Shown here: positions 827-30,763 of the stretch, piece after piece
Numbering within the stretch: position 1 is the stretch's first letter
How the letters are laid out: each line of letters opens with the position of its first letter
Assembly (NCBI GenBank): GCA_964547565.1
Contig: CAZJOG010000002.1
Span: 1 to 39,690 of the forward strand
DNA from: an uncultured Desulfovibrionaceae bacterium
Lineage (GTDB): Bacteria; Desulfobacterota; Desulfovibrionia; Desulfovibrionales; Desulfovibrionaceae
Length of the DNA: 39,690 bases
Direction of reading: 5' to 3'
Translations under genes and position numbers: made by a program
Notes under the pieces: generated by a model
What the model saw: only the letters and a program-made list of their open reading frames with translations
Databases searched by the model: none
Told to the model about the DNA's origin: nothing

Positions 827-855
827 CTTCTTTGCACATAAACAAAGGAGGCAAT

Positions 856-2445
856 ATGCCAAAGAATGCTCTTGTTATTATGTTTGACAGTCTGTCCTAC
901 CGGTATGTCGGCGCTTACGGAAACACATGGATCAAAACGCCCAATATGGATCGCCTGGCACGAGAAGGTGTTCTGTTTGAAGAAATGTATATTGAAGGTT
1001 TGCCCACCATACCGTGCAGACGTGCCATGCTTACAGGCCGCTACACACTTGCAGGTAAAGGCTGGTCGCCTTTGGAAATGGATGATACCAGCATCGCAGA
1101 TTTATGCTGGGGACGCCCCATTGACACAGCCATGATTTACGACTGCCCCATGTACCAGTTGCCTAAATTTGGATACACCCGAGGGTATGATAAAGCATGG
1201 TTTATCCATGGCCAGCTTCCGGACCAGTTTTATGCCCATGACCCTCTCTATCACCGTGATCCGCACGAGTTTATGGAAGATCACATACCAGCCAAAGCCA
1301 AAGCTGTACACGGCACCGAAGGTGTGGCGGATTTTGCCCTGCAGGAAGCCCGGGAAATGCTGGGCGAACGCCAATACTGGCGCACGGAATACGAACGCCC
1401 TGTCCATAAAACTGTACGTAAGGCTATAGAATATTTAGAACAGGTTGACCGCAATAAACAATTCTTTTTATGGGTAGATAGCTTTGACCCGCATGAGCCC
1501 TGGGATCCCCCATCTGTTTATACCAAAACACCATGCCCGTATGACCCGGAGTACAAAGGCAAAAATATTCCTACCCCCATTATGGGGCCGGCGGCTGTGT
1601 ATACAGAGCCGGAGTTAAACCACATCCGTATGCTTTATGCGGAACTTATCACCGTGTGTGACAATGCGCTGGGTATCCTTATGGACGCTGTACGCAGGCT
1701 GGGCTTTGAACAAGACACCCTGTTTATGATGGTGTCCGACCATGGCGAACCTATGGGCAATGCAGAACATGGACACGGTATACTGGCCACGTGCCGCCCC
1801 TGGCCATACGATGAACTTTCACACGCCCCCATGCTGCTGCGTGCGCCAGGTATAAAGGCCGGGCAACGTATTAAGGCTTTTGTGCAATCGTGTGACATTG
1901 CCCCCACCATTTGTGACTGGCTGGGTATTGGCGTTCACCCGGATATGACGGGGCAATCCCTTCTTCCTTTATGCCGCGGCGAAGTCAGCAAAGTGCGTGA
2001 TTTTGCCATTTCCGGTTACTACAAAGCTTCCTGGGCTATTTATACCCAAGACTGGTGCTTCATACACTGGCTTTCCCAGGATAAAGTTTTTGTAGAAAAC
2101 GAAGACGCCAATAACATTGACCATCTCAAAAAGATGGACAAACTGGAAGTAACAGGCACAGCCGCCATGATGACGGGGCTTATCAGTGTGAACCCCTTAA
2201 ATGCCGCAGATACTGCACAAGATGACCTAAGCCCAAGCTACCAGGAACGCATTGGCTTAAAAGAAGGAGAAGAACAATGGACATGCGGGGGCAATGCCAA
2301 AATGGAAGTGCCCGAAGCCGATGAGCTGTATAACCGGAAAACAGATCCTTACCAGCTTAACAATGTTGCCAACCAGCATCCTGATATATGCAAGGAACTT
2401 TACGCCACCCTGCGTACATTCATGGCGGATTTAAAGGAAAAATAG
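856..2445 (+). CDS. sulfatase-like hydrolase/transferase (alkaline-phosphatase superfamily), Thr at nucleophile position
   Basis: ATG 856 is preceded by AAAGGAGG (844-851); the TTG at 832 in the track is rejected. Motifs: IMFDSLSYRY, PTIPCRRAMLTGRY (T-x-P-x-R-x4-TGR), DSFDPHEPWDPP, MVSDHGEPMGNAEHGHG. Confidence 0.8.
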   Translation: MPKNALVIMFDSLSYRYVGAYGNTWIKTPNMDRLAREGVLFEEMYIEGLPTIPCRRAMLTGRYTLAGKGWSPLEMDDTSIADLCWGRPIDTAMIYDCPMYQLPKFGYTRGYDKAWFIHGQLPDQFYAHDPLYHRDPHEFMEDHIPAKAKAVHGTEGVADFALQEAREMLGERQYWRTEYERPVHKTVRKAIEYLEQVDRNKQFFLWVDSFDPHEPWDPPSVYTKTPCPYDPEYKGKNIPTPIMGPAAVYTEPELNHIRMLYAELITVCDNALGILMDAVRRLGFEQDTLFMMVSDHGEPMGNAEHGHGILATCRPWPYDELSHAPMLLRAPGIKAGQRIKAFVQSCDIAPTICDWLGIGVHPDMTGQSLLPLCRGEVSKVRDFAISGYYKASWAIYTQDWCFIHWLSQDKVFVENEDANNIDHLKKMDKLEVTGTAAMMTGLISVNPLNAADTAQDDLSPSYQERIGLKEGEEQWTCGGNAKMEVPEADELYNRKTDPYQLNNVANQHPDICKELYATLRTFMADLKEK

Positions 2446-22525: not shown

Positions 22526-23491
22526 TTAGATTTGCATATCATACAAAGCGGAAAGCGCATTGGCATCCCCGGCAAGTGCCCGTTCCCACACATGGTTCAT
22601 ACTATCCACGTCCTGTGCGGCAGCTTTGCCAGACTCCAGCATAGGTGCACGCGGAACTACACGCACAGGTGTTTTGCTTTTAGCAGGTGTTTTTTCATCA
22701 GAAGTAGCAGAGGAAACAGGGGAAGCAGGGGAATCCAGAATCCCTTCATTTTTGGCTTGCGCTAAAAACTTTTTGAAAAGTGTAAAATGCTGGCCAAAAA
22801 AAACCGGATCATTGCGTAGTTTTTGCTCTGTAGCCGCGGCTTCCTGCATGGTCATTTTGTTATGGCGTACCTCTTGTACCAGCATGGCTTGCATAGCTCC
22901 CACAATATCCGGGTAATCCGGGTCAGCATGGTAGCGTCCAAACTCTTGTGCTAACCTCAACTGTTGCACTTCCTGCATAGTTTTGCTGACATCAGGGTTA
23001 TACTTTTCTTCCACAACTTTTAATAACTGCGGAGTAAGCAAGGCAATAAGGTGATCAAGTCCCTGCACCTCCTGGCTACCTTCGGGAAAAATTGTTTCCG
23101 CTGGTTTTGCTTCTTTTTTTGCAGGTTGTTTGCCTGACACATAATCCTGGATAACCTGTAAAAGACCAGGAGTATTCTGTACTTCATCCATAAAAACAAG
23201 CGCATTTTCAATTTTGCCCTTGTTTTGCATAAAGTACGCCCCAACCTCTGTAAGCTGGATAAGCTCATCCCCTTCCATTTCCGTATCTTTACCAAAAATG
23301 GGCAAGACGTATTTTTCCGGTTCGTCAAAATCCTCAGGCTCTTTTTTTTCCTGTTTGCTTTCTGACTTGACGGCTTCTGTTGCAGGAACAGGGGGCAATA
23401 ACTCTTCCTGAAACTCTGCGCCCACATTTTCTGTAGTATCCAACTCTGCATCAAGCAACTCTTCATCAAAACTCACTTCATTTTCCGGCAT
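22526..23491 (-). CDS. scaffolding protein
   Basis: 321 aa, very acidic N-terminus (EVSFDEELLDAELDTTE...), helical, immediately upstream of the capsid gene. Confidence 0.5.
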   Translation of the reverse strand: MPENEVSFDEELLDAELDTTENVGAEFQEELLPPVPATEAVKSESKQEKKEPEDFDEPEKYVLPIFGKDTEMEGDELIQLTEVGAYFMQNKGKIENALVFMDEVQNTPGLLQVIQDYVSGKQPAKKEAKPAETIFPEGSQEVQGLDHLIALLTPQLLKVVEEKYNPDVSKTMQEVQQLRLAQEFGRYHADPDYPDIVGAMQAMLVQEVRHNKMTMQEAAATEQKLRNDPVFFGQHFTLFKKFLAQAKNEGILDSPASPVSSATSDEKTPAKSKTPVRVVPRAPMLESGKAAAQDVDSMNHVWERALAGDANALSALYDMQI

Positions 23492-23500
23492 ATATCCTCC

Positions 23501-23905
23501 TTACATCAGCCCCATTTTATGGAGCAGGTTAAGAACAAATGTTTTTACAGCAGGGGCTAAAAGATTAGCCACCATAAGCATGGCTGTTACAATGCCACCC
23601 ATGATAACAGCCTTTCCCTTGCTGTACCCATGCAGAACATCACGCTTTTCTTTTATCTCCTGGTAATTTCTTTCCAGAGATGCAAGCCTTGGTTCTGTAA
23701 GCCTTGTATTTTCCTCAAGCGTATGCAGGCGCTGCTCTGTTTGGCCAATGCGTTCCCCGTGGCGATAAAAACGCTTTTCCATTTCTTCAAAACGCCTGTT
23801 TACATCGGCTGTAAGTGTATCAAGACTCTTTTCCGTGCGTTTTGTGCTTTCTAAAAGCTCACCAAGAGTTTTCTTGATTTCCAGCACATGATCGATTAAT
23901 TCCAT
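23501..23905 (-). CDS. coiled-coil protein with C-terminal TM anchor (lysis-cassette accessory)
   Basis: 134 aa, heptad-like charged repeats, then AVIMGGIVTAMLMVANLLAPAV. TAATG overlap with the holin-like gene. Confidence 0.4.
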   Translation of the reverse strand: MELIDHVLEIKKTLGELLESTKRTEKSLDTLTADVNRRFEEMEKRFYRHGERIGQTEQRLHTLEENTRLTEPRLASLERNYQEIKEKRDVLHGYSKGKAVIMGGIVTAMLMVANLLAPAVKTFVLNLLHKMGLM

Positions 23906-24210
23906 TAAAAGCCCAACCCTAACATCCCTAAAAGTAGCGTAGTGATTTCCTTAAGTACGGAGGGCGGCAAAATCACATCTGGCCAGTAAGTGGCGATTAC
24001 ACTGCGCCCAACCACCTCCCAGGCAAACACAAGCGCCAGCACCCAGCCAAGAAAACCCCTCCAGGCTTTCAAACGTGTGTGTCCAGAAGTAGAAACTTCC
24101 GCCTCATTTATCCTCGCTTGCGCTTCATTCACTTTGCTACGGTCAGGAAGTACACGGTCAAAAAGTTTTCCAAAGGCATTCATAATGCCACCGAGAATAG
24201 GTATATTCAC
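23905..24210 (-). CDS. putative holin
   Basis: 101 aa, directly downstream of the endolysin. Amphipathic N-terminus GKLFDRVLPDRSKVNEAQARI, then hydrophobic segments FLGWVLALVFAWEVVG and TTLLLGMLGLGF. This resembles the 3-TM holin type. Confidence 0.5.
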   Translation of the reverse strand: MNIPILGGIMNAFGKLFDRVLPDRSKVNEAQARINEAEVSTSGHTRLKAWRGFLGWVLALVFAWEVVGRSVIATYWPDVILPPSVLKEITTLLLGMLGLGF

Positions 24211-24224
24211 ATCCCAAAACCTCC

Positions 24225-24803
24225 TTATGCCGCCAGCATGGCTTTTTTCAAATTATTGCAACGGTTCAGCCAGCCTGTAAGAAAGATTTTTTGGCTAGGC
24301 TCTGCATCTGCAAGTTGACGGAAAAACTTTCGCCTTTCTTCCACCAAAAATGAAATAAGCCGAGTATCCATACGCAGAAGCTCTGTTTTTGTTTTGAGCC
24401 CAAGGATACCATCCACTACAAGTAATGGTCTATCCTCCAGCGTGTTTACAGCCTTTTGTGCCATTTTTACGGCAGTTGCCTTGCCATGATTCACAGAAGC
24501 GTCAAACAGAAAAAGCTGTATAGCAGAGGGCAAGTTTTCTATACTTGGTATAGTATTCCAGAAATATTCCCTGTAAATTGCTTCTGCCTGCTTTCCCGTG
24601 AGACTTTTTACTGTCGCAATAGTTGCCGGGAGTTCTACCCCAATAGAGGCAAACCAAGGAAATTCCTCCTTCTGTATACCTTGCAAAAAGCGCAGGCTTA
24701 TGCCGTAATTTGTTGCCCCACCTTTATCTTTGGGGTTATTTACATACCCGCCTTCTGCGGGTTTGGTAAAAGCGTAGGCTTGCTGAAATCCTGCTACTTC
24801 CAT
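24225..24803 (-). CDS. endolysin, GH108 lysozyme-like N-terminus + peptidoglycan-binding C-terminus
   Basis: FTKPAEGGYVNNPKDKGGATNYGIS is the GH108 signature (EGGY..DP.D.GG.T..GI). C-terminal VVDGILGLKTKTEL is PG_binding_3-like. Confidence 0.85.
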   Translation of the reverse strand: MEVAGFQQAYAFTKPAEGGYVNNPKDKGGATNYGISLRFLQGIQKEEFPWFASIGVELPATIATVKSLTGKQAEAIYREYFWNTIPSIENLPSAIQLFLFDASVNHGKATAVKMAQKAVNTLEDRPLLVVDGILGLKTKTELLRMDTRLISFLVEERRKFFRQLADAEPSQKIFLTGWLNRCNNLKKAMLAA

Positions 24804-25027
24804 ACACCCTCCATAATATCCCCTATACGTTTTGCAAAAATGGCCGCATCAGACATAAAGATAGAAAGCATCACAAGCGCGCATTCCTGTTGTTCGTTTG
24901 TTTCCATGCTGCCATCTTCCTTTATTGTGTTTGTTGTAAGTGGTTGCGACAGTTTACACACATCGCACTCTGCACCAAAGGGACAAATTTTTTGCGTTGT
25001 TTGGTTCATAGCTGCAGCATTACTCAT
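24794..25027 (-). CDS. hypothetical small protein
   Basis: 77 aa. The ATG overlaps the rSAM stop by 8 nt and the stop overlaps the endolysin start. No clear SD. Contains CPFGAECDVC. Confidence 0.35.
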   Translation of the reverse strand: MSNAAAMNQTTQKICPFGAECDVCKLSQPLTTNTIKEDGSMETNEQQECALVMLSIFMSDAAIFAKRIGDIMEGVWK

Positions 25028-26243
25028 ATTTTATTGCAAAAATCTCTTCTGGCTCTTCGCCCGTTACAAGCCAGAATTTATAAAGAAACCGAGGCATAGA
25101 ATACGCATAGGACTGAGAACAAAAGGAAGCATTCGGTTCAATGTAGCTCAGGAAACACCTGTTGCAGGTAGCCCTAAACAAACAATCATGACAAACCTGA
25201 CGCTCATCATAAAACTCATGCCGCATTTTTAGTCGTTCTTCCCTGAACTGTTTGCGTAGGAGGGGGATGTTTTCATTACCCAAAAATGAACCGAGCTTTC
25301 TATTTCCATCATACTCAGGGCCATTTAGACAAGGATATACGTCACCATTTATGTAACAATGGGTTTGGGTTTCCTTCAAAGCCGTACAACCTTTTTCCCC
25401 AATGGTAACTTCCATTCCTTTGGGTGCGCCTATCATCCCAGCAAATTCAGGGAGTATTTTAATATGGTTGCGAATGAAGTGAAAGTTTTTTTGCGCTTGT
25501 TTCCACCCTTCCTGTGCATCTAATATATAACTGTCATCAAGCAGTTCGCCCGTGAATGGTATCGCAAAGACAAAGTGCGTAAAGTAGATAAGATGCTCCA
25601 AATCACGTCCAATTTTGTCATAAATAGGTTGAATGATGGTTTCCCAGTCCATCCAGTGCGTACTCCAGGTGATATTAAAGTTTACCTTACCAGGTAGGTT
25701 TTTTAACAGTTTCCGTATGCAACGCACCACATTTTTATTGTCCAGTACATCTATATTTCTATGGAATTTTGTACTTACTCCGTCATGGCTTATTTTCACC
25801 TCCACGTTTTTTTCAATAAGCCAATCTGAAATTTCATCTGTCAATAGGGATGCGTTTGTAATTGTTGCATAACGTATAGACGGAATGTGTTTTCGTATCG
25901 AAACATCAAAGTTTTTCATATCCTCAAAATGTAACAGAGGCTCACCACCAAAAAAAACAACATGTTTCAAATCGGGTACTTGCGTTACTATGGCATCTAC
26001 AAGTTTTTCAATTTGATCCAGAGGCGTAGGAGTAATTTTTTCCTTTAAATGCAGATTTGGAAAACAATAATTGCAACTGAAGTTACAATTATCGCTAAAT
26101 TTCAATATAAGGCTTACAGGGCGCTCTTTTTTATGCTCTTGCATATTGACAGGAGTAAAAAGCTTACCCTTTTCATCATAAAAACTATCAGTTTGTGGGC
26201 TGTATTGATAAATTTTTTCCTTAGTCTTTATTCCATAGATCAT
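25020..26243 (-). CDS. radical SAM enzyme with SPASM-like C-terminal auxiliary-cluster domain
   Basis: ATG 26243 lies 1 nt after the upstream TAA and is preceded by GGAGGA. CNFSCNYC (CX3CX2C) is at 26064..26087, GGEPLL downstream. C-terminal GCTALKETQTHCYINGDVYPC...VCHDCLFRATCNRC (25155..25193) plus a further Cys. Confidence 0.85.
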   Translation of the reverse strand: MIYGIKTKEKIYQYSPQTDSFYDEKGKLFTPVNMQEHKKERPVSLILKFSDNCNFSCNYCFPNLHLKEKITPTPLDQIEKLVDAIVTQVPDLKHVVFFGGEPLLHFEDMKNFDVSIRKHIPSIRYATITNASLLTDEISDWLIEKNVEVKISHDGVSTKFHRNIDVLDNKNVVRCIRKLLKNLPGKVNFNITWSTHWMDWETIIQPIYDKIGRDLEHLIYFTHFVFAIPFTGELLDDSYILDAQEGWKQAQKNFHFIRNHIKILPEFAGMIGAPKGMEVTIGEKGCTALKETQTHCYINGDVYPCLNGPEYDGNRKLGSFLGNENIPLLRKQFREERLKMRHEFYDERQVCHDCLFRATCNRCFLSYIEPNASFCSQSYAYSMPRFLYKFWLVTGEEPEEIFAIKYE

Positions 26244-26244
26244 G

Positions 26245-26877
26245 TTATTCCTCCAATATTCCCTTAAATTTTTCAAAGCCACGTGCAATACGTAGTATTT
26301 CTGTAATATCATCACTCTCTCGAAATATAACGAGGTCGACTTCATCTTTTGTAGATGCGCGTTTTATCTGTTCTATGACGTCAAAAAAATCAACCAATAA
26401 AAAATAATGCGCTTGAAGTATCGCTTCTTTTTGTTTTTGATTATCTAAACTTTCTGATTCTATATCCAGTGTTGTAGCAAGTTTTTCAGCGCATACAGCA
26501 TATCCAAGCTCTTCAAATGTAGGAAACGCATCGACTTGTGAATGATTCAAAAGAATTGGAATATCTATCAAGTTAACCGCAAACTTGACCGTGTTATTAA
26601 CAGAATTGATTGCGTTCGTATAACTAAGGAAAATTTTGTAGAGTTTTTTTTCCTTATATGTGTCAATATCATCAGATATAGGATTATTAGTATTAAGACT
26701 AAAAGAGCGCAGCGGTAGCTCTTCAGTAGGTTCGGGTATTAATTCTTCTTCAAGAAAAAATCCTTCTTTCTCCATTAACTGTATATCTTTGTTAAAGCCC
26801 TGCCAGACATTACCCTCACTATCTGTGTAAACTTCTGGGGCTTCAACAGTATTTCCGTCAATAACCTTTTTGTACAT
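26245..26877 (-). CDS. acidic hypothetical protein (partner of the rSAM/Cys-rich pair, or fibre-assembly-like)
   Basis: 210 aa, GAGGA upstream. The N-terminus MYKKVIDGNTVEAPEVYTDSEGNVWQGF resembles the openings of tail-fibre-assembly/DUF4376-type proteins (recalled, weak). The rest is acidic and helical. Confidence 0.4.
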   Translation of the reverse strand: MYKKVIDGNTVEAPEVYTDSEGNVWQGFNKDIQLMEKEGFFLEEELIPEPTEELPLRSFSLNTNNPISDDIDTYKEKKLYKIFLSYTNAINSVNNTVKFAVNLIDIPILLNHSQVDAFPTFEELGYAVCAEKLATTLDIESESLDNQKQKEAILQAHYFLLVDFFDVIEQIKRASTKDEVDLVIFRESDDITEILRIARGFEKFKGILEE

Positions 26878-26894
26878 AATTTAGTTGATCCTCA

Positions 26895-27209
26895 TCAATT
26901 ACAGCAAGTACACGCGCAGTCACAATAACAAACACAAACACAGTCACACTGACAACAAGCAGTATCATCTACAACTTGTGTTAATGCTGGTTTTACAAGC
27001 CCTCTGTTCGTACAATCCCCGTCACCTGTATTTTCCCAATTTGCTTGATTACTTGTGCTTTTTTGGCATGTTGCTGTGCGGTGTTGATAGCGCTGGTTAG
27101 TATTACCATATGGATACGTTGTTCCCCCCGTACAAGCACCGTTCGCCCATCCACCCGTTACCCAGCGAACAGAAAAATTAAAAAGCATGAGCAATTCCCG
27201 TATATCCAT
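26895..27209 (-). CDS. Cys-rich small protein with C-terminal (Cys-X)n tail; candidate rSAM substrate
   Basis: AAGGAG lies 7 nt upstream of ATG 27209, right after the tail-fibre TAA. 104 aa ending DDTACCQCDCVCVCYCDCACTCCN (Cys tract 26898..26957). Confidence 0.65.
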   Translation of the reverse strand: MDIRELLMLFNFSVRWVTGGWANGACTGGTTYPYGNTNQRYQHRTATCQKSTSNQANWENTGDGDCTNRGLVKPALTQVVDDTACCQCDCVCVCYCDCACTCCN

Positions 27210-27221
27210 AAATATTCTCCT

Positions 27222-28487
27222 TTAGTGTCCACGGATTGCACCTACAGCCCATGAGCTTGCAGACCGTAAGTATTGCCAGATTAAAATGTAGTGATAATTG
27301 GCGGGAAATGATGGAAGCCCACCTGTCAGGTTATTGGGTGTTCCAAAGTTTATAGCTCCACCTTGATAATGCATGTACACAACAATTTGATTATCTATTG
27401 CGACATCAACAGCAGGCAAAGAAAATGTTGTTGTGCCATTTATTGTTACGCGGTTCACTGTGTTTGTGGCTAAAGGAATAGTTCCACTTGTTGCACCGAT
27501 AATGTTTATCGCATCTCTGGCACGCAGCTTACCTGCGGCATCTACAAGCAAACCATCACCAACAAGTATTGGCCCCAAATTACTCGCACTTGCCGGTGTA
27601 GTAGCTTTTGTATGAGCAGTGTCTGCTAAGTCATACGCTGTTTTGACAGCATGAGCTGTTGCTGCTTCTTCTATGGAAGTTGAACTCACGCTGTCATTAA
27701 GCAACACAATACCAGCTGATTCTGTTGTGGCAAATGTGTTTGCTTTTATATTAGCAGTATTTGCCAGTTCATACGCTACTGCGGCATCATTAATTCCTTG
27801 GCTTGCTTTTGCGTCAATTCCCTCTGCTATTTCTTTTGCTTCTTCTGCTGTTGCCACAGCAGAAGCGGCATCTTCCATAGCTTCTGTTGCCTTAGCGTCA
27901 ATCCCATTTGCCACAGAAAGTGCATTTTCTGCCGTTGTTTCTGCCCTATTGGCTGTTGCTTCAGCCAAATCCGATTTTTTAAATGATTGAGTTGCCTTAT
28001 AGTCAACACCCTCTGCAATTTTCTTAGCTTCTGTAGACGTTATAAACGCATTATTCGCTGATTCAAACGCCATATTGGCTGTACTTGCAATACCTGTGGC
28101 AGTGACATTTGCACTTTCTGCTATATTTTTTGCATCTATTGATGTGCTTACAGCGTCATCTGCTTTTTGCTCTGCCGCAAAACTTACAGCCCGTATTTCC
28201 TCAATCACAGTAGCAGGAGCGGCCCCTATCATCCCTGGAGTTAAAGGGTCCGTGCCATCTGCGGTGTTGTGCATGGCGGCATGAAATGCTGGGGGCATTC
28301 CAATCATGCCGTATGGTTCTCCATTGACATATAAAAAGCCGTCCGTATGTACGGCCAAAAGCACCTTATCACCAGCAGGCGTTAACAACTCCAGCTGCTC
28401 TGTGCCAGCAGCAAACACAGTGCCGGCACCTCCTGGCAGAGCCTTTTTCAGATCACCATACTGACTTGGTTTTGTAAGGTTGCGCAT
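27222..28487 (-). CDS. tail fibre protein
   Basis: ATG 28487 lies 1 nt after the upstream TAG. Repeated coiled segments (AKKIAEGVDYKAT / ANGIDAKATEA / AKEIAEGIDAKAS). The phage-fibre repeat ESAGIVLLNDSVSSTSIEEAATAHAVKTAYDLA is present, followed by a beta-rich C-terminal domain. Confidence 0.8.
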   Translation of the reverse strand: MRNLTKPSQYGDLKKALPGGAGTVFAAGTEQLELLTPAGDKVLLAVHTDGFLYVNGEPYGMIGMPPAFHAAMHNTADGTDPLTPGMIGAAPATVIEEIRAVSFAAEQKADDAVSTSIDAKNIAESANVTATGIASTANMAFESANNAFITSTEAKKIAEGVDYKATQSFKKSDLAEATANRAETTAENALSVANGIDAKATEAMEDAASAVATAEEAKEIAEGIDAKASQGINDAAVAYELANTANIKANTFATTESAGIVLLNDSVSSTSIEEAATAHAVKTAYDLADTAHTKATTPASASNLGPILVGDGLLVDAAGKLRARDAINIIGATSGTIPLATNTVNRVTINGTTTFSLPAVDVAIDNQIVVYMHYQGGAINFGTPNNLTGGLPSFPANYHYILIWQYLRSASSWAVGAIRGH

Positions 28488-28488
28488 G

Positions 28489-28854
28489 CTATGCCCCTTG
28501 TTTTCGGGCTTCCTGCTTTTTTGCACGTTCCCCTGCGTAAATATCACTATTTACTTGGGCAAAAAGCGCATTTATGCCATCCATTTCACTCAGGACATCA
28601 CGGTGACGCTCCAAATTACCTTTGGCAAGTGCCAAAATTTCCAGCTTACGCGCAGTGATTAACCGGTTTTTGGCATTTTCCAGATACACATATTCCACAG
28701 ACTTCTGGAATGCCATTGCTTCTTCTGCCTGCTCAATAAGCATTTCATTGGAGAGAGGCGTTAAAACTTCCGGCAAAACCTCCACCTGGGTTTTCGAGGT
28801 TTCTTCCATGTTGGTTTGAGTTTCCATCTCCACGTCCTTTTTCTGTTTCGCCAC
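28489..28854 (-). CDS. hypothetical coiled-coil protein
   Basis: GTG 28854 lies 8 nt after GGGAGG. 121 aa. The first 110 nt overlap the portal ORF in another frame. Confidence 0.45.
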   Translation of the reverse strand: MAKQKKDVEMETQTNMEETSKTQVEVLPEVLTPLSNEMLIEQAEEAMAFQKSVEYVYLENAKNRLITARKLEILALAKGNLERHRDVLSEMDGINALFAQVNSDIYAGERAKKQEARKQGA

Positions 28855-30763
28855 TTTGCGAACCTCCCTGCATAGCTGCCATTTGCGCCATTTGTTGTGC
28901 CTGGGCTGCCTGCATCATTTGCTTTTGTTGTTCTCGCATTTGTAATTCTTCCACAGGATAGTGGTAAGGTTCCATAGGCACATTAAGAAGCTGTCCCATA
29001 CGGTCAAGCGCTTTTGCCACATGCCCCATATTGGCAAAGCCAGCAGGAACAGCCACACTTGCCGCAAACTGTACATATTCTTTCAGCACAAGCGCCTGCT
29101 GCTGTTTTTCTTGCGGCCCTACGCCAAGTTCAATATTCACAGTAAAGTCATTGGCATAGTCCTCTACATCTATTTTATTACCTTTGCGCATAAAATAATC
29201 TATATATTCAGCACCAAACACTTTAAACTGAACAACCATATCTTCTATGGCGTCTTTGAATGTTTCTGCAATAACATTTGCCATATATTTTTGACGTTGT
29301 TGCGAAAGCGATGCTATTATACCAATACCTGTAGCAGTTTTATTTAAGCTGTTTGCATCAATACCCTGGTTATAGCGTGTAACGCCACTTATGCGTTCTG
29401 CTCTTCCCTCCAGCATTTCCATGCTTTTTATAATAGAAGCATCCAGTGGAGGTGGTTTTACAATATCATAAAGTTTTTGCTGCACAGTGGAAGCACCGGC
29501 TTTCAGAACATCCCCTATGTAACGTTCATCCCACTCATTAATAAGCACTTCATCTGAGGTAATAAGGTTGCCATACACACTCATGGCTGTTGCGTCATTC
29601 CAAAGACGTGTAAGCTGGGTATGCTCAATTTGTATGGGTTCCAGTGAGGCAGGATACGCTTTGCCTTCAAACTTAAAGCTGTCTTCAATAGCACGCGCCA
29701 CACGGAAAGGGGGTCTGCCATACGGATTTTCTTCTATGGCAAGCACAACGTCATGCGCCAGGCGGATAATGACAGGTTCTAAAAGGCCATCCCTGTCTAT
29801 ATCCAGCCCGGTATAGATCTCCCACAACTCTACGGGGGCAGACGGCCTGGTAAGACCTTCCTCGAAGTCAGGGCTTATTTCCACTTCCTCTTTTTGTGGG
29901 TCAGGCAGGCCAGCAGCGTCATACCGATAATCGTCGTCATCTCTTTCTTCGTCATGATCCACCCATTCCAGATTTTTGGAAATTTTGGCATAGCTGCCTT
30001 TTCTATAACGGCCGGAAGCTTCACCCTTTTTAATATCTTCCAGACGTTTGTGGCTTCTGTGGGCAACAATACGGCAATCGTCTAATTCCGGCCCATCTGG
30101 CGAATAAAAAAAGTCTTCCGGGTCAACTGCCAGAATACGTGGGCCAATAAACACTGGTTCCTGTTTTATAAGTTTCACGTTTTTGAGGCTCTGCACCACT
30201 TCGGTAGCTTGCCCCAAAGCATCCATTACGGACACACGTTCTTCTGTGAATTTTGCCAGCTCCCAACCTTCTGTAAGTTTCTGCTCCAGTATAGCAAAAT
30301 CTTGTGCAGAAACTGCCTCTATCCGCTCGGAAGCTGTACGCCTGTATTCTTCATCCCAAAAAACTTTCACCACTCCGTAATGGTATTTCAGACAGCAATC
30401 CAACCAGGTGCGTAGTTCCCTTGCGCCATACTGGGCTTCAAAAATATTCCAGCGCACAAGTTTACGAACTCTGTCACCGGCTTCTGGGTTATCGCCTATT
30501 TTAACATCAAAAAAATCCGGAGAGGTAAAAAGCTGGTCTAAGCCAACCTTCATACCTTCTACGGATTCAAACACAGTAGGAGAGACCACGCTGGAGAAAC
30601 CAGGGCGGTTCATGCCTTTTATGCCGGCTGCCTCTTTGCTCATGGAATAAAGCAACAGGTACTGCTTGCGCTGTTCGCGCAAAATATCCTGCCAATCTTT
30701 TGCCCGCTGCAAATCCGGCGTGATAATGTTTTTGATTGTATCGTCAGATATGGAAACTTCCAC
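28745..30763 (-). CDS. portal protein
   Basis: 672 aa, GTG start. Size, position near TerL, and an acidic/Gln-rich C-terminal tail (QQKQMMQAAQAQQMAQMAAMQGG) are typical of portals. No motif-level proof. Confidence 0.6.
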   Translation of the reverse strand: MEVSISDDTIKNIITPDLQRAKDWQDILREQRKQYLLLYSMSKEAAGIKGMNRPGFSSVVSPTVFESVEGMKVGLDQLFTSPDFFDVKIGDNPEAGDRVRKLVRWNIFEAQYGARELRTWLDCCLKYHYGVVKVFWDEEYRRTASERIEAVSAQDFAILEQKLTEGWELAKFTEERVSVMDALGQATEVVQSLKNVKLIKQEPVFIGPRILAVDPEDFFYSPDGPELDDCRIVAHRSHKRLEDIKKGEASGRYRKGSYAKISKNLEWVDHDEERDDDDYRYDAAGLPDPQKEEVEISPDFEEGLTRPSAPVELWEIYTGLDIDRDGLLEPVIIRLAHDVVLAIEENPYGRPPFRVARAIEDSFKFEGKAYPASLEPIQIEHTQLTRLWNDATAMSVYGNLITSDEVLINEWDERYIGDVLKAGASTVQQKLYDIVKPPPLDASIIKSMEMLEGRAERISGVTRYNQGIDANSLNKTATGIGIIASLSQQRQKYMANVIAETFKDAIEDMVVQFKVFGAEYIDYFMRKGNKIDVEDYANDFTVNIELGVGPQEKQQQALVLKEYVQFAASVAVPAGFANMGHVAKALDRMGQLLNVPMEPYHYPVEELQMREQQKQMMQAAQAQQMAQMAAMQGGSQSGETEKGRGDGNSNQHGRNLENPGGGFAGSFNASLQ

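Follow-up and report, generated by a model that had tools for sequence, protein, structure and literature searches.

The stretch of DNA analysed here (the window; 39,690 nucleotides (nt) of an uncultured Desulfovibrionaceae bacterium, contig CAZJOG010000002.1 of GenBank assembly GCA_964547565.1) is bacterial chromosome from position 1 to about 9,000 and prophage in the remainder, and the system in question is a short minus-strand cassette lying in that prophage between the tail-fibre gene and the lysis genes (Table 1). It comprises a gene for a protein of 104 amino acid residues (aa) with a Cys-rich C-terminus, a gene for an acidic 210-aa protein and a gene for a 407-aa radical S-adenosylmethionine (SAM) enzyme of the SPASM type. 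An earlier note on this DNA had described the three as translationally coupled, and their open reading frames (ORFs), ribosome-binding sites and spacing were confirmed: the 104-aa ORF starts 12 nt past the fibre stop, with AAGGAG 7 nt upstream of its ATG; the enzyme starts at the ATG at 26243, 1 nt past the preceding TAA and behind GGAGGA; and from fibre to endolysin the genes either overlap or are separated by gaps of at most 17 nt. In viral contigs and prophage loci, more than 100 of them, proteins ending in alternating Cys residues were found together with enzymes related to this one, and it is this recurrence that supports taking the 104-aa protein and the enzyme as a functional pair.

Table 1. 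Features of the cassette and its immediate neighbours in the window.
Feature	Position	Strand	Basis or remark
Tail-fibre protein, 441 aa, no Cys	27222..28547	-	Pfam Phage_fiber_2 6.7e-11; PHROG tail-fibre families, best 2.3e-26
104-aa carrier, 14 Cys, predicted substrate	26895..27209	-	ORF and ribosome-binding site
C-terminal tail CCQCDCVCVCYCDCACTCCN	26898..26957	-	nine alternating Cys; 12 Cys in 20 residues; reaches stop codon (six-frame scan)
210-aa acidic protein, orphan	26245..26877	-	isoelectric point 4.44; 41 D+E vs 21 K+R; G+C content (GC) 0.343
407-aa radical-SAM/SPASM enzyme, predicted maturase	25020..26243	-	PF04055 3.5e-17; PHROG 1802 1.8e-26
77-aa ORF, four Cys (CPFGAECDVC...C)	24794..25027	-	overlaps the stop of the enzyme gene (ATGAGTAA) and the endolysin start (GTATGGAAGTAG)
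Lysis genes closing the operon	23905..24803	-	GH108 endolysin 24225-24803, holin 23905-24210

The 104-aa ORF ends DDTACCQCDCVCVCYCDCACTCCN, and its alternating run of nine Cys stops 2 aa before the stop codon, about 650 nt upstream of the enzyme start codon. Away from enzymes of this kind, runs of at least four alternating Cys occur about 0.4 times per 100,000 six-frame ORF residues in the 80 viral loci described below; a run of nine Cys in the 104-aa ORF is far beyond chance. The (X-Cys)n run of the window carrier has three repeats or more and lies on the enzyme strand, within about 3 kb upstream of the enzyme and no more than 12 aa from a stop codon, and the carrier directly follows a tail-fibre gene in the tail module. 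With its nine alternating Cys the tail is long and atypical, the median run in the family having five, and the 104-aa protein matches only itself among 5.8 billion proteins. The DNA of the tail (26898-26960, minus strand) is a (TGN)n-like simple sequence whose +1 frame reads as hydrophobic, transmembrane-like LVVSVTVFVFVIVTARVLAVI. Among near-identical relatives the number of tail repeats varies, as in NCNCNCNCDCYC vs NCNCNCACDCCC, which suggests slippage-driven variation. The carrier ORF also lies in the frame of the fibre gene, from which one TAA and four codons divide it (...AIRGH*RRIFMDIREL). This in-frame junction (27209-27224) could reflect a gene that has been split or a fusion made by readthrough at a low level, or it could be a coincidence with a chance of one in three; in most relatives, unlike in the window, fibre and Cys tail are a single protein.

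The linkage of tail and enzyme was examined in both directions. In the forward test, an alignment of the window enzyme with four cultured-phage enzymes served as the query in IMG/VR, with preselection patterns for retrieval derived mostly from enzymes of the type found in Achromobacter phage JWF, and the best 80 of 301 confirmed relatives were scanned in six frames for (X-Cys)n or (N/D-Cys)n runs. Such a run is present in 56 of these 80 viral loci, and in 52 of the 64 that have at least 2.5 kb upstream; nearly all runs share the strand of the enzyme, as a rule no more than 3 kb upstream of it. On that strand, 65 runs fall between -3.5 and +2.5 kb (360,000 residues), as compared with 4 in 956,000 residues elsewhere, a 43-fold enrichment. 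In the reverse test, IMG/VR was searched for DNA encoding NCNCNC[N/D]C with no reference to the enzyme, which yielded at least 120 stretches. Among the matches listed, 84 of 120 stand in an ORF context, and 60 of these 84 have a same-strand enzyme of the family in the stored flank; where at least 3 kb of downstream sequence is available, the proportion with a same-strand enzyme is 49 of 57 (86%). The pattern was likewise seen in 38 of the 80 loci kept from GTDB genomes, most of them prophages of Burkholderiales and Alphaproteobacteria, and also in loci from one Bacteroidetes and one Collinsella metagenome-assembled genome. The linkage holds in both directions and, because it does so and the pairing recurs in more than 100 loci, the Cys-tailed ORF and the radical-SAM/SPASM enzyme are supported by these sequence comparisons as a functional pair, as the earlier note had supposed when it spoke of a precursor and its maturase.

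The place of the window enzyme in this group was assessed with a profile hidden Markov model (HMM) built from 52 distinct enzymes of motif-bearing viral loci, the window being left out. Over its full length the window enzyme reaches 137 bits (E 6e-42), covering HMM positions 58-417 of 450. When the best 149 matches of an unbiased HMMER search of 1.84 billion representative proteins were scored with the same model, 40 reached at least 300 bits and 75 at least 200 bits; the sequence neighbourhood of the enzyme is therefore the phage family, and on this evidence it is classed as a divergent member of the phage (X-Cys)n fibre-tail/radical-SAM family, PHROG 1802. Its divergence is considerable: the closest other match among 5.8 billion proteins has 37% identity over 28% of the query, the first match after the query itself in the HMMER search has an E-value of 1e-24, and a scan of IMG/VR with the window enzyme alone returned nothing.

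As to the enzyme itself, the radical-SAM cluster motif CNFSCNYC (CX3CX2C) occupies residues 53-60, and PF04055 gives 63.5 bits against a gathering cut-off of 29.5. Read with the pattern CX9-15GX4C ... CX2CX5CX2-3C ... C, which was taken to stand for two auxiliary clusters, the C-terminal part contains the complete seven-Cys signature (C286-x13-G300-x4-C305, with an extra C296; C351-x2-C354-x5-C360-x2-C363; C375), and in 40 relatives each of the seven Cys-motif positions is either invariant or conserved to 90% or more. The earlier note's description of a CX3CX2C enzyme with a C-terminal auxiliary Cys set is borne out, and of the two Pfam models it named PF04055 was obtained, while the SPASM model PF13186 gave no match at E<0.01, PF04055 and Fer4_12 alone being matched. 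Since the motif and the fold are both present, the missing PF13186 match is treated here as divergence, and the SPASM assignment rests on motif, alignments and fold.

Every curated NCBIfam radical-SAM family scores far below its cut-off with the window enzyme. The top family is PapB (NF047865; 75.1 bits vs 340, residues 44-361, E 5.5e-21), and CcpM (TIGR04068; 58 vs 500 bits), QhpD (TIGR03906; 58 vs 453), SCIFF (TIGR03974; 44 vs 425) and anSME (TIGR03942; 38 vs 349) fall short in the same way; homology therefore does not reveal the type of reaction. Closest among the curated sequence families are PapB, the lachnocin radical-SAM enzyme, CcpM and QhpD, and also SCIFF, while the nearest full-length relatives are equally unclassified SPASM proteins. 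Peptide maturases match over the full length, and the viperin and MoaA models give weak N-terminal matches to the radical-SAM core only. The AlphaFold2 model (mean predicted local distance difference test score, pLDDT, 85.9) has as its closest solved folds, in this order, CteB (Foldseek E 4e-14 to 1e-12, template modelling (TM) score about 0.6), anSME (TM 0.67-0.70 normalised to target) and then SuiB, ChlB and TigE; MoaA, viperin, BtrN and DesII are weaker fold matches. A nucleoside or cofactor clade was ruled out by the full-length relatives and the fold matches, and the enzyme lies in the peptide- and protein-modifying SPASM cloud, as had been expected of it. In the model a three-stranded N-terminal sheet stands in the place of a full RRE (RiPP recognition element; RiPPs are peptides synthesized ribosomally and modified post-translationally), with about 45 residues ahead of CX3CX2C. 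This sheet (residues 2-22, 26178-26243) is modelled at pLDDT of about 90, and its Tyr14 is conserved across cultured-phage enzymes. Judged from the model, it is a candidate docking site that would take up the tail as an added strand and so replace a full RRE.

The relatives indicate what kind of protein carries the tail. In most of them it ends a tail-fibre protein of 300-600 aa encoded in the tail module, and the long carriers are tail-fibre proteins by PHROG (1e-40 to 1e-48 in loci L055 and L081, 1e-26 in L012, 6e-10 in L045). The commonest gene order is F4 (baseplate-hub-like), F6, F5, the tail-bearing fibre, F3, F2 or F17, the enzyme and then holin and lysis genes, so that the position between fibre and lysis genes, for which the earlier note knew of no described system, turns out to be the usual one for this phage system. 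Small stand-alone carriers of 65-113 aa, at times in tandem, occur in at least 11 related loci. The closest architecture to that of the window is found in locus L010, where a 408-aa fibre is followed by an 82-aa ORF ending GGACACDCVCDCACVCGNGG and then by the enzyme, with no gene between carrier and enzyme; the fibre of the window is weakly similar to the fibre of this locus. Of 63 distinct runs of at least four Cys, 43 end no more than 12 aa from a stop codon, 14 lie directly before a Hint-like domain that starts CF(P/L/T)... (Pfam Hom_end_hint and Vint match in L012) and 6 are internal. Hint domains cut at their own first Cys; both arrangements would therefore leave the Cys tail as a free C-terminus. 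The Cys residues are invariant, and the X positions are filled by Asn (51%), Ala (16%), Asp (14%) and, less often, by others (Lys, Gln, Val, Ser, Thr, Tyr).

Several loci depart from these arrangements. In one sub-type (L030, L041, L065, L074, L075, L083 and L084) the tail …YNCNCACNC leads into a conserved domain some 170 aa long ('SKIICAKLYExG'; family F16), which replaces the stop codon or Hint domain, and the carrier lies downstream of the enzyme, not upstream. A viral contig (L067, 1257-1415) has an NCNC tail followed by about 25 K-C repeats, and a Treponema zioleckii contig (L145, 2363-2600) has a long Asp/Cys-rich repeat (DDDDCDDCNCDC...) beside a radical-SAM relative.

The accessory genes may point to a further modification. 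F2 is a 2-oxoglutarate (2OG)-Fe(II) oxygenase (PHROG 81, 1.3e-7; PF13759 weakly), F3 (about 270 aa) and F17 have no annotation, and in many loci (L007-L086) F2 and F3 lie between fibre and enzyme; the three are common in the family and not universal. The mean Asn fraction of the tails is 0.65 in loci with F2 vs 0.44 in those without it, and all seven loci with Asn-free tails, the window included, have no F2. This trend, which is suggestive only, hints at hydroxylation of Asn or Asp as a second modification.

Cultured phages provide further instances of the pairing. A tblastn search of cultured phages matched Achromobacter phage JWF, whose enzyme, annotated as anSME-like, lies between tail-fibre and lysis genes as in the window and whose fibre holds ...KPRQNCNCDCNCNCSCFPAGTMV..., with alternating Cys directly before the Hint domain. 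The layout of Achromobacter phage 2-1 is that of JWF: in both, a fibre with NCNCDCNC(NC)SC and Hint is followed by a 240-aa gene, the radical-SAM gene and the lysis genes. In Ralstonia phage RSP15 the last residues of the fibre are ...NTNCQCGN, and two further genes precede that of the enzyme. Ralstonia phages RP12 and RP31 are cultured examples as well, and the jumbo phage RP12 has, after fibre-like genes, an unannotated 65-aa ORF ending NCNCNCACTRGSL. This ORF (L005 1867-2064; AP017924.1 ~82888-83085), which ends ...SHTHVFYDNYGSNCNCNCACTRGSL, lies between ORF074 and ORF075 and is followed by a 295-aa gene and four consecutive genes with radical-SAM motifs, ORF076-079; similar '...HTHIF(F/Y)DDYSTxCNCNCNC' ORFs together with several radical-SAM genes occur in L183, L191 and L247.

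We consider it moderately probable, from these sequence patterns, that the (X-Cys)n tail at the extreme C-terminus of a fibre, or of a small fibre-adjacent protein, is the target of post-translational modification by the radical-SAM/SPASM enzyme. Taken singly, the parts of this proposal differ in strength: that the enzyme acts on the tail seems very likely and that the product is a virion component seems likely, while thioether formation as the chemistry is put forward by analogy and tentatively, at somewhat less than an even chance. The late operon would yield the 441-aa fibre, then the 104-aa Cys-tailed protein and then the enzyme, which would bind the tail, possibly as a β-strand on its own N-terminal three-stranded sheet. 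It would then cleave SAM, take hydrogen from tail residues and join Cys sulfurs to carbons, forming thioether bridges as in sactipeptides and ranthipeptides. PapB, QhpD and the SCIFF maturase couple Cys sulfur to carbon, and a carboxylate-directed chemistry like that of PapB would explain why the tails stand at a free or Hint-freed C-terminus. The likely product would be a compact, reduction-proof, covalently stapled knot, built into the fibre at or near its distal tip before lysis. As for the family at large, the chances appear evenly balanced that phages of many lineages crosslink or rebuild an alternating-Cys fibre C-terminus by means of a dedicated radical-SAM enzyme, with Hint exposing the terminus or a 2OG oxygenase adding a modification in some of them, the copy in the window having an Asn-free tail and a split carrier.

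Other explanations have to be weighed against this one. The tail might be a metal or iron-sulfur site in the core of a trimeric fibre tip, by analogy with the His-X-His iron sites of T4 gp37, with the radical-SAM enzyme carrying out other Cys chemistry (formylglycine formation, epimerisation) or preparing the site. Invariant Cys and variable X do point to the thiols as the functional groups, and alternation puts all Cys on one face of a β-strand; the second closest fold, moreover, is that of anSME, an enzyme without an RRE whose target is a Cys of a folded protein, and the JWF enzyme bears an anSME-like annotation. Yet the anSME model scores the window enzyme far below its cut-off, and the tails do not contain its target motif. 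To bind a metal would in itself require no dedicated enzyme, whereas 86% of the tails in the reverse test (49 of 57 among the matches listed) have one, and their strict C-terminal position fits carboxylate-directed thioether chemistry better. We therefore hold this explanation to be unlikely. A small ORF with a C-terminal Cys-rich core beside a SPASM maturase also resembles the CcpM, SCIFF and ranthipeptide systems, and small stand-alone carriers, some in tandem, are present in several related loci; the 104-aa protein could accordingly be a classical RiPP precursor from which the modified core is cleaved and set free, whether on lysis or during lysogeny, to serve as a bacteriocin, a signal or an anti-competitor peptide. 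However, no match to an RRE, a peptidase or a transporter was seen in the cassette or its neighbours, and no RRE, leader peptidase or exporter in the window as a whole or the conserved synteny; the same tail ends a 300-600-aa fibre protein in most relatives, and the genes are translationally coupled into a late structural and lysis operon, with the ORF in frame with the fibre gene. Of the two products that the earlier note had entertained, the fibre-tip virion component is thus the favoured one, given that the tail stands on PHROG tail-fibre proteins in relatives, and a released bacteriocin-like peptide, with no leader domain or protease in sight, is decidedly unlikely.

It could also be argued that the adjacency means nothing, the radical-SAM enzyme serving a non-protein substrate (a nucleotide, a cofactor or an anti-defence compound) or the sulfatase-like protein of the host flank (832-2445) and the 104-aa ORF being a chance product of (TGN)n DNA. 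The weak N-terminal viperin and MoaA matches, the presence of a sulfatase-family gene in that flank, and the low-complexity DNA of the tail with its hydrophobic helix in the +1 frame might be cited in favour. But the viperin and MoaA matches cover the radical-SAM core only; the host protein has CRRAM instead of C-x-P-x-R and is encoded 23 kb away, outside the prophage; the 104-aa ORF has a strong ribosome-binding site, and it is the Cys frame that is conserved across the family; and the two-way linkage over more than 100 loci excludes chance, so that this explanation is most improbable. The tail as a chance simple-sequence ORF was ruled out by that linkage, and the enzyme as an anSME for the host gene by its score with the anSME model and by the CRRAM sequence.

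A number of observations nevertheless weigh against the proposal that the tail is crosslinked by the enzyme and built into the fibre. The window enzyme scores 137 bits with the family HMM, where typical members score 300-650, and it stays below the cut-off in all curated radical-SAM families. The window tail has no Asn, the residue that fills 51% of the X positions in the family, and the carrier, encoded by a small ORF of its own, shows no similarity to other carriers in its N-terminal part. The recurring partners F2, F3 and F17 are absent from the window proteins by BLAST, HMM and hhalign comparison. Variable X with invariant Cys would also fit a formylglycine-type, Cys-directed chemistry or metal binding. 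Support for the system is comparative throughout, and searches with the major capsid protein and the portal gave no phage relatives that would allow a comparison bearing on whether the cassette is dispensable; they turned up a single distant viral contig and two short contigs from metagenomes, and nothing among cultured phages. A megablast search of cultured phages with 12 kb had no match.

The 210-aa protein stands outside the conserved system. It has no Pfam, NCBIfam or PHROG match, finds only itself among 5.8 billion proteins and nothing in an IMG/VR scan with this protein alone, and shows no similarity to the accessory families F2, F3, F17, F52, F8 and F12 by BLAST, HMM or hhalign; its AlphaFold2 model, made from the single sequence, is unusable (pLDDT 44.6). 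No accessory family matches any window protein, and the 210-aa protein is therefore, as far as these sequence comparisons reach, specific to this lineage. The idea of the earlier note that the three genes form a unit does not hold, a counterpart of the 210-aa protein being absent from all related loci. Its suggestion that the whole cassette is AT-rich and was acquired as a unit holds only in part: GC is 0.343 in the 210-aa gene and 0.380 in the enzyme gene, compared with 0.451 in the prophage, and the dip is limited to these two, the Cys-tail gene being typical of the phage at 0.438. The 77-aa ORF that follows the enzyme has no Pfam, NCBIfam or PHROG family match and no relatives in the related loci by BLAST, HMM or hhalign; this orphan could be a member of the cassette or of the lysis module.

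The minus-strand genes of the prophage are arranged as primase/helicase, TerL, a 383-aa ORF, SU10-type portal, a 121-aa ORF, fibre (Phage_fiber_2), the cassette, the 77-aa ORF, GH108 endolysin (Pfam Glyco_hydro_108 3e-21 and PG_binding_3), holin (GTA_holin_3TM 2.3e-4), a 134-aa ORF, putative scaffold, major capsid protein and more structural genes, with an S24/HTH repressor near 38.3-38.9 kb; the 383-aa ORF between TerL and the portal has no family match. This module order is unusual in that fibre, cassette and the entire lysis module (22526-30763) are placed between the portal and the scaffold and major-capsid genes and do not close the series of tail genes. Promoter and terminator signals within the cassette show no excess over shuffled sequence, a comparison by which an internal promoter or terminator was ruled out. 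The host flank encodes a sulfatase-family protein, MFS transporters, a GNAT acetyltransferase and a sigma-54 activator. The sulfatase-family protein (832-2445, plus strand) reads IPCRRAMLTGR at the site of the canonical formylglycine motif C-x-P-x-R; it may not be a formylglycine-dependent sulfatase, and it is unrelated to the prophage enzyme.

The pairing of (X-Cys)n tails with radical-SAM enzymes is thus widespread in phages, and full-text searches of the literature found no paper that describes it or that connects radical SAM enzymes to tail fibres, to Hint domains or to phage proteins with Cys tails. If the proposal is correct, it would be, to our knowledge, the first case of radical-SAM modification of a virion structural protein and would define a new class of fibre-tip architecture. 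Fibre tips decide host range and particle robustness, and their rebuilding by radical chemistry would add a new layer to virion maturation. Phage engineering would be affected, since fibres with tails of this kind may depend on their enzyme for folding or function, and a role could be assigned to hundreds of phage genes that bear the label 'radical SAM domain' or 'anSME'. To enzymologists the family would offer a large natural set of SPASM enzymes that need no leader, are directed to a C-terminus and work on a minimal (X-Cys)n motif, of interest as tools for stapling peptides and proteins. Direct tests of the hypothesis are feasible in cultured phages, namely JWF and 2-1 of Achromobacter and RSP15 and RP12 of Ralstonia.

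Among known systems, PapB, the freyrasin enzyme, offers the most direct parallel in sequence. It joins Cys to the carbon adjoining an Asp or Glu carboxylate with little sequence dependence and is also able to use a C-terminal carboxylate (PMC9413430, PMC12373016). The window enzyme matches its family from the core to the SPASM region, PapB likewise acts on a repetitive, Cys-rich core, and the tails of the phage family are C-terminal and contain Asp. Unlike in PapB, the motif here is C-X-C-X-C and not C-X3-D, the predicted substrate is a phage fibre or fibre-adjacent protein and not a leader-bearing peptide, and the gene is phage-encoded in a tail module; by score the enzyme is no member of that family. 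CteB (PDB 5WGG, 5WHY) is the closest solved structure to the AlphaFold2 model and the second PDB sequence match, with a full SPASM domain and two auxiliary clusters, and its bonds from Cys sulfur to the α-carbon of varied acceptors would tolerate a variable X. Identity to it is only 15-19%, however, and CteB has a full N-terminal leader-binding RRE, whereas the window enzyme has the short stretch described above. The anSME enzymes (PDB 4K36-4K39; TIGR03942) share with it the SPASM domain and the lack of an RRE, and they modify a Cys in a protein and not in a leader-tagged peptide; their recognition motif C/S-x-P/A-x-R, on the other hand, is absent from the tails, and the phage has no sulfatase.

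QhpD/QhpC and the uncharacterised CcpM, SCIFF and CefB, the last with Cys at every fifth position, are SPASM systems with Cys-rich, low-complexity targets and are among the top NCBIfam matches, although the window enzyme reaches 38-59 bits where their cut-offs are 425-600. QhpD installs several Cys-Asp/Glu thioethers inside a protein subunit. None of this group is phage-borne or fibre-linked, and none has Cys at every second residue of a free C-terminus. Phage fibres themselves provide a structural parallel. The tip of the T4 gp37 fibre has His-X-His iron sites, and fibres and spikes are known with self-cleaving C-terminal chaperone domains. Like the former, the tails described here are motifs of alternating residues at a trimeric fibre's distal C-terminal end, and the Hint-bearing relatives would resemble the latter in losing a C-terminal domain by self-cleavage that exposes the tail; yet the residue here is Cys and not His, the Hint domain is of the Hedgehog/intein type, and the known fibres need no dedicated radical enzyme. 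In its proposed function the system is closest to the SPASM thioether maturases that act on Cys-rich cores, while failing the cut-off of every curated family. By these comparisons it would stand apart from all of them in its virion structural substrate, its free C-terminus with Cys at every second residue, its location in phages and, in some members, its association with Hint and 2OG oxygenase modules.

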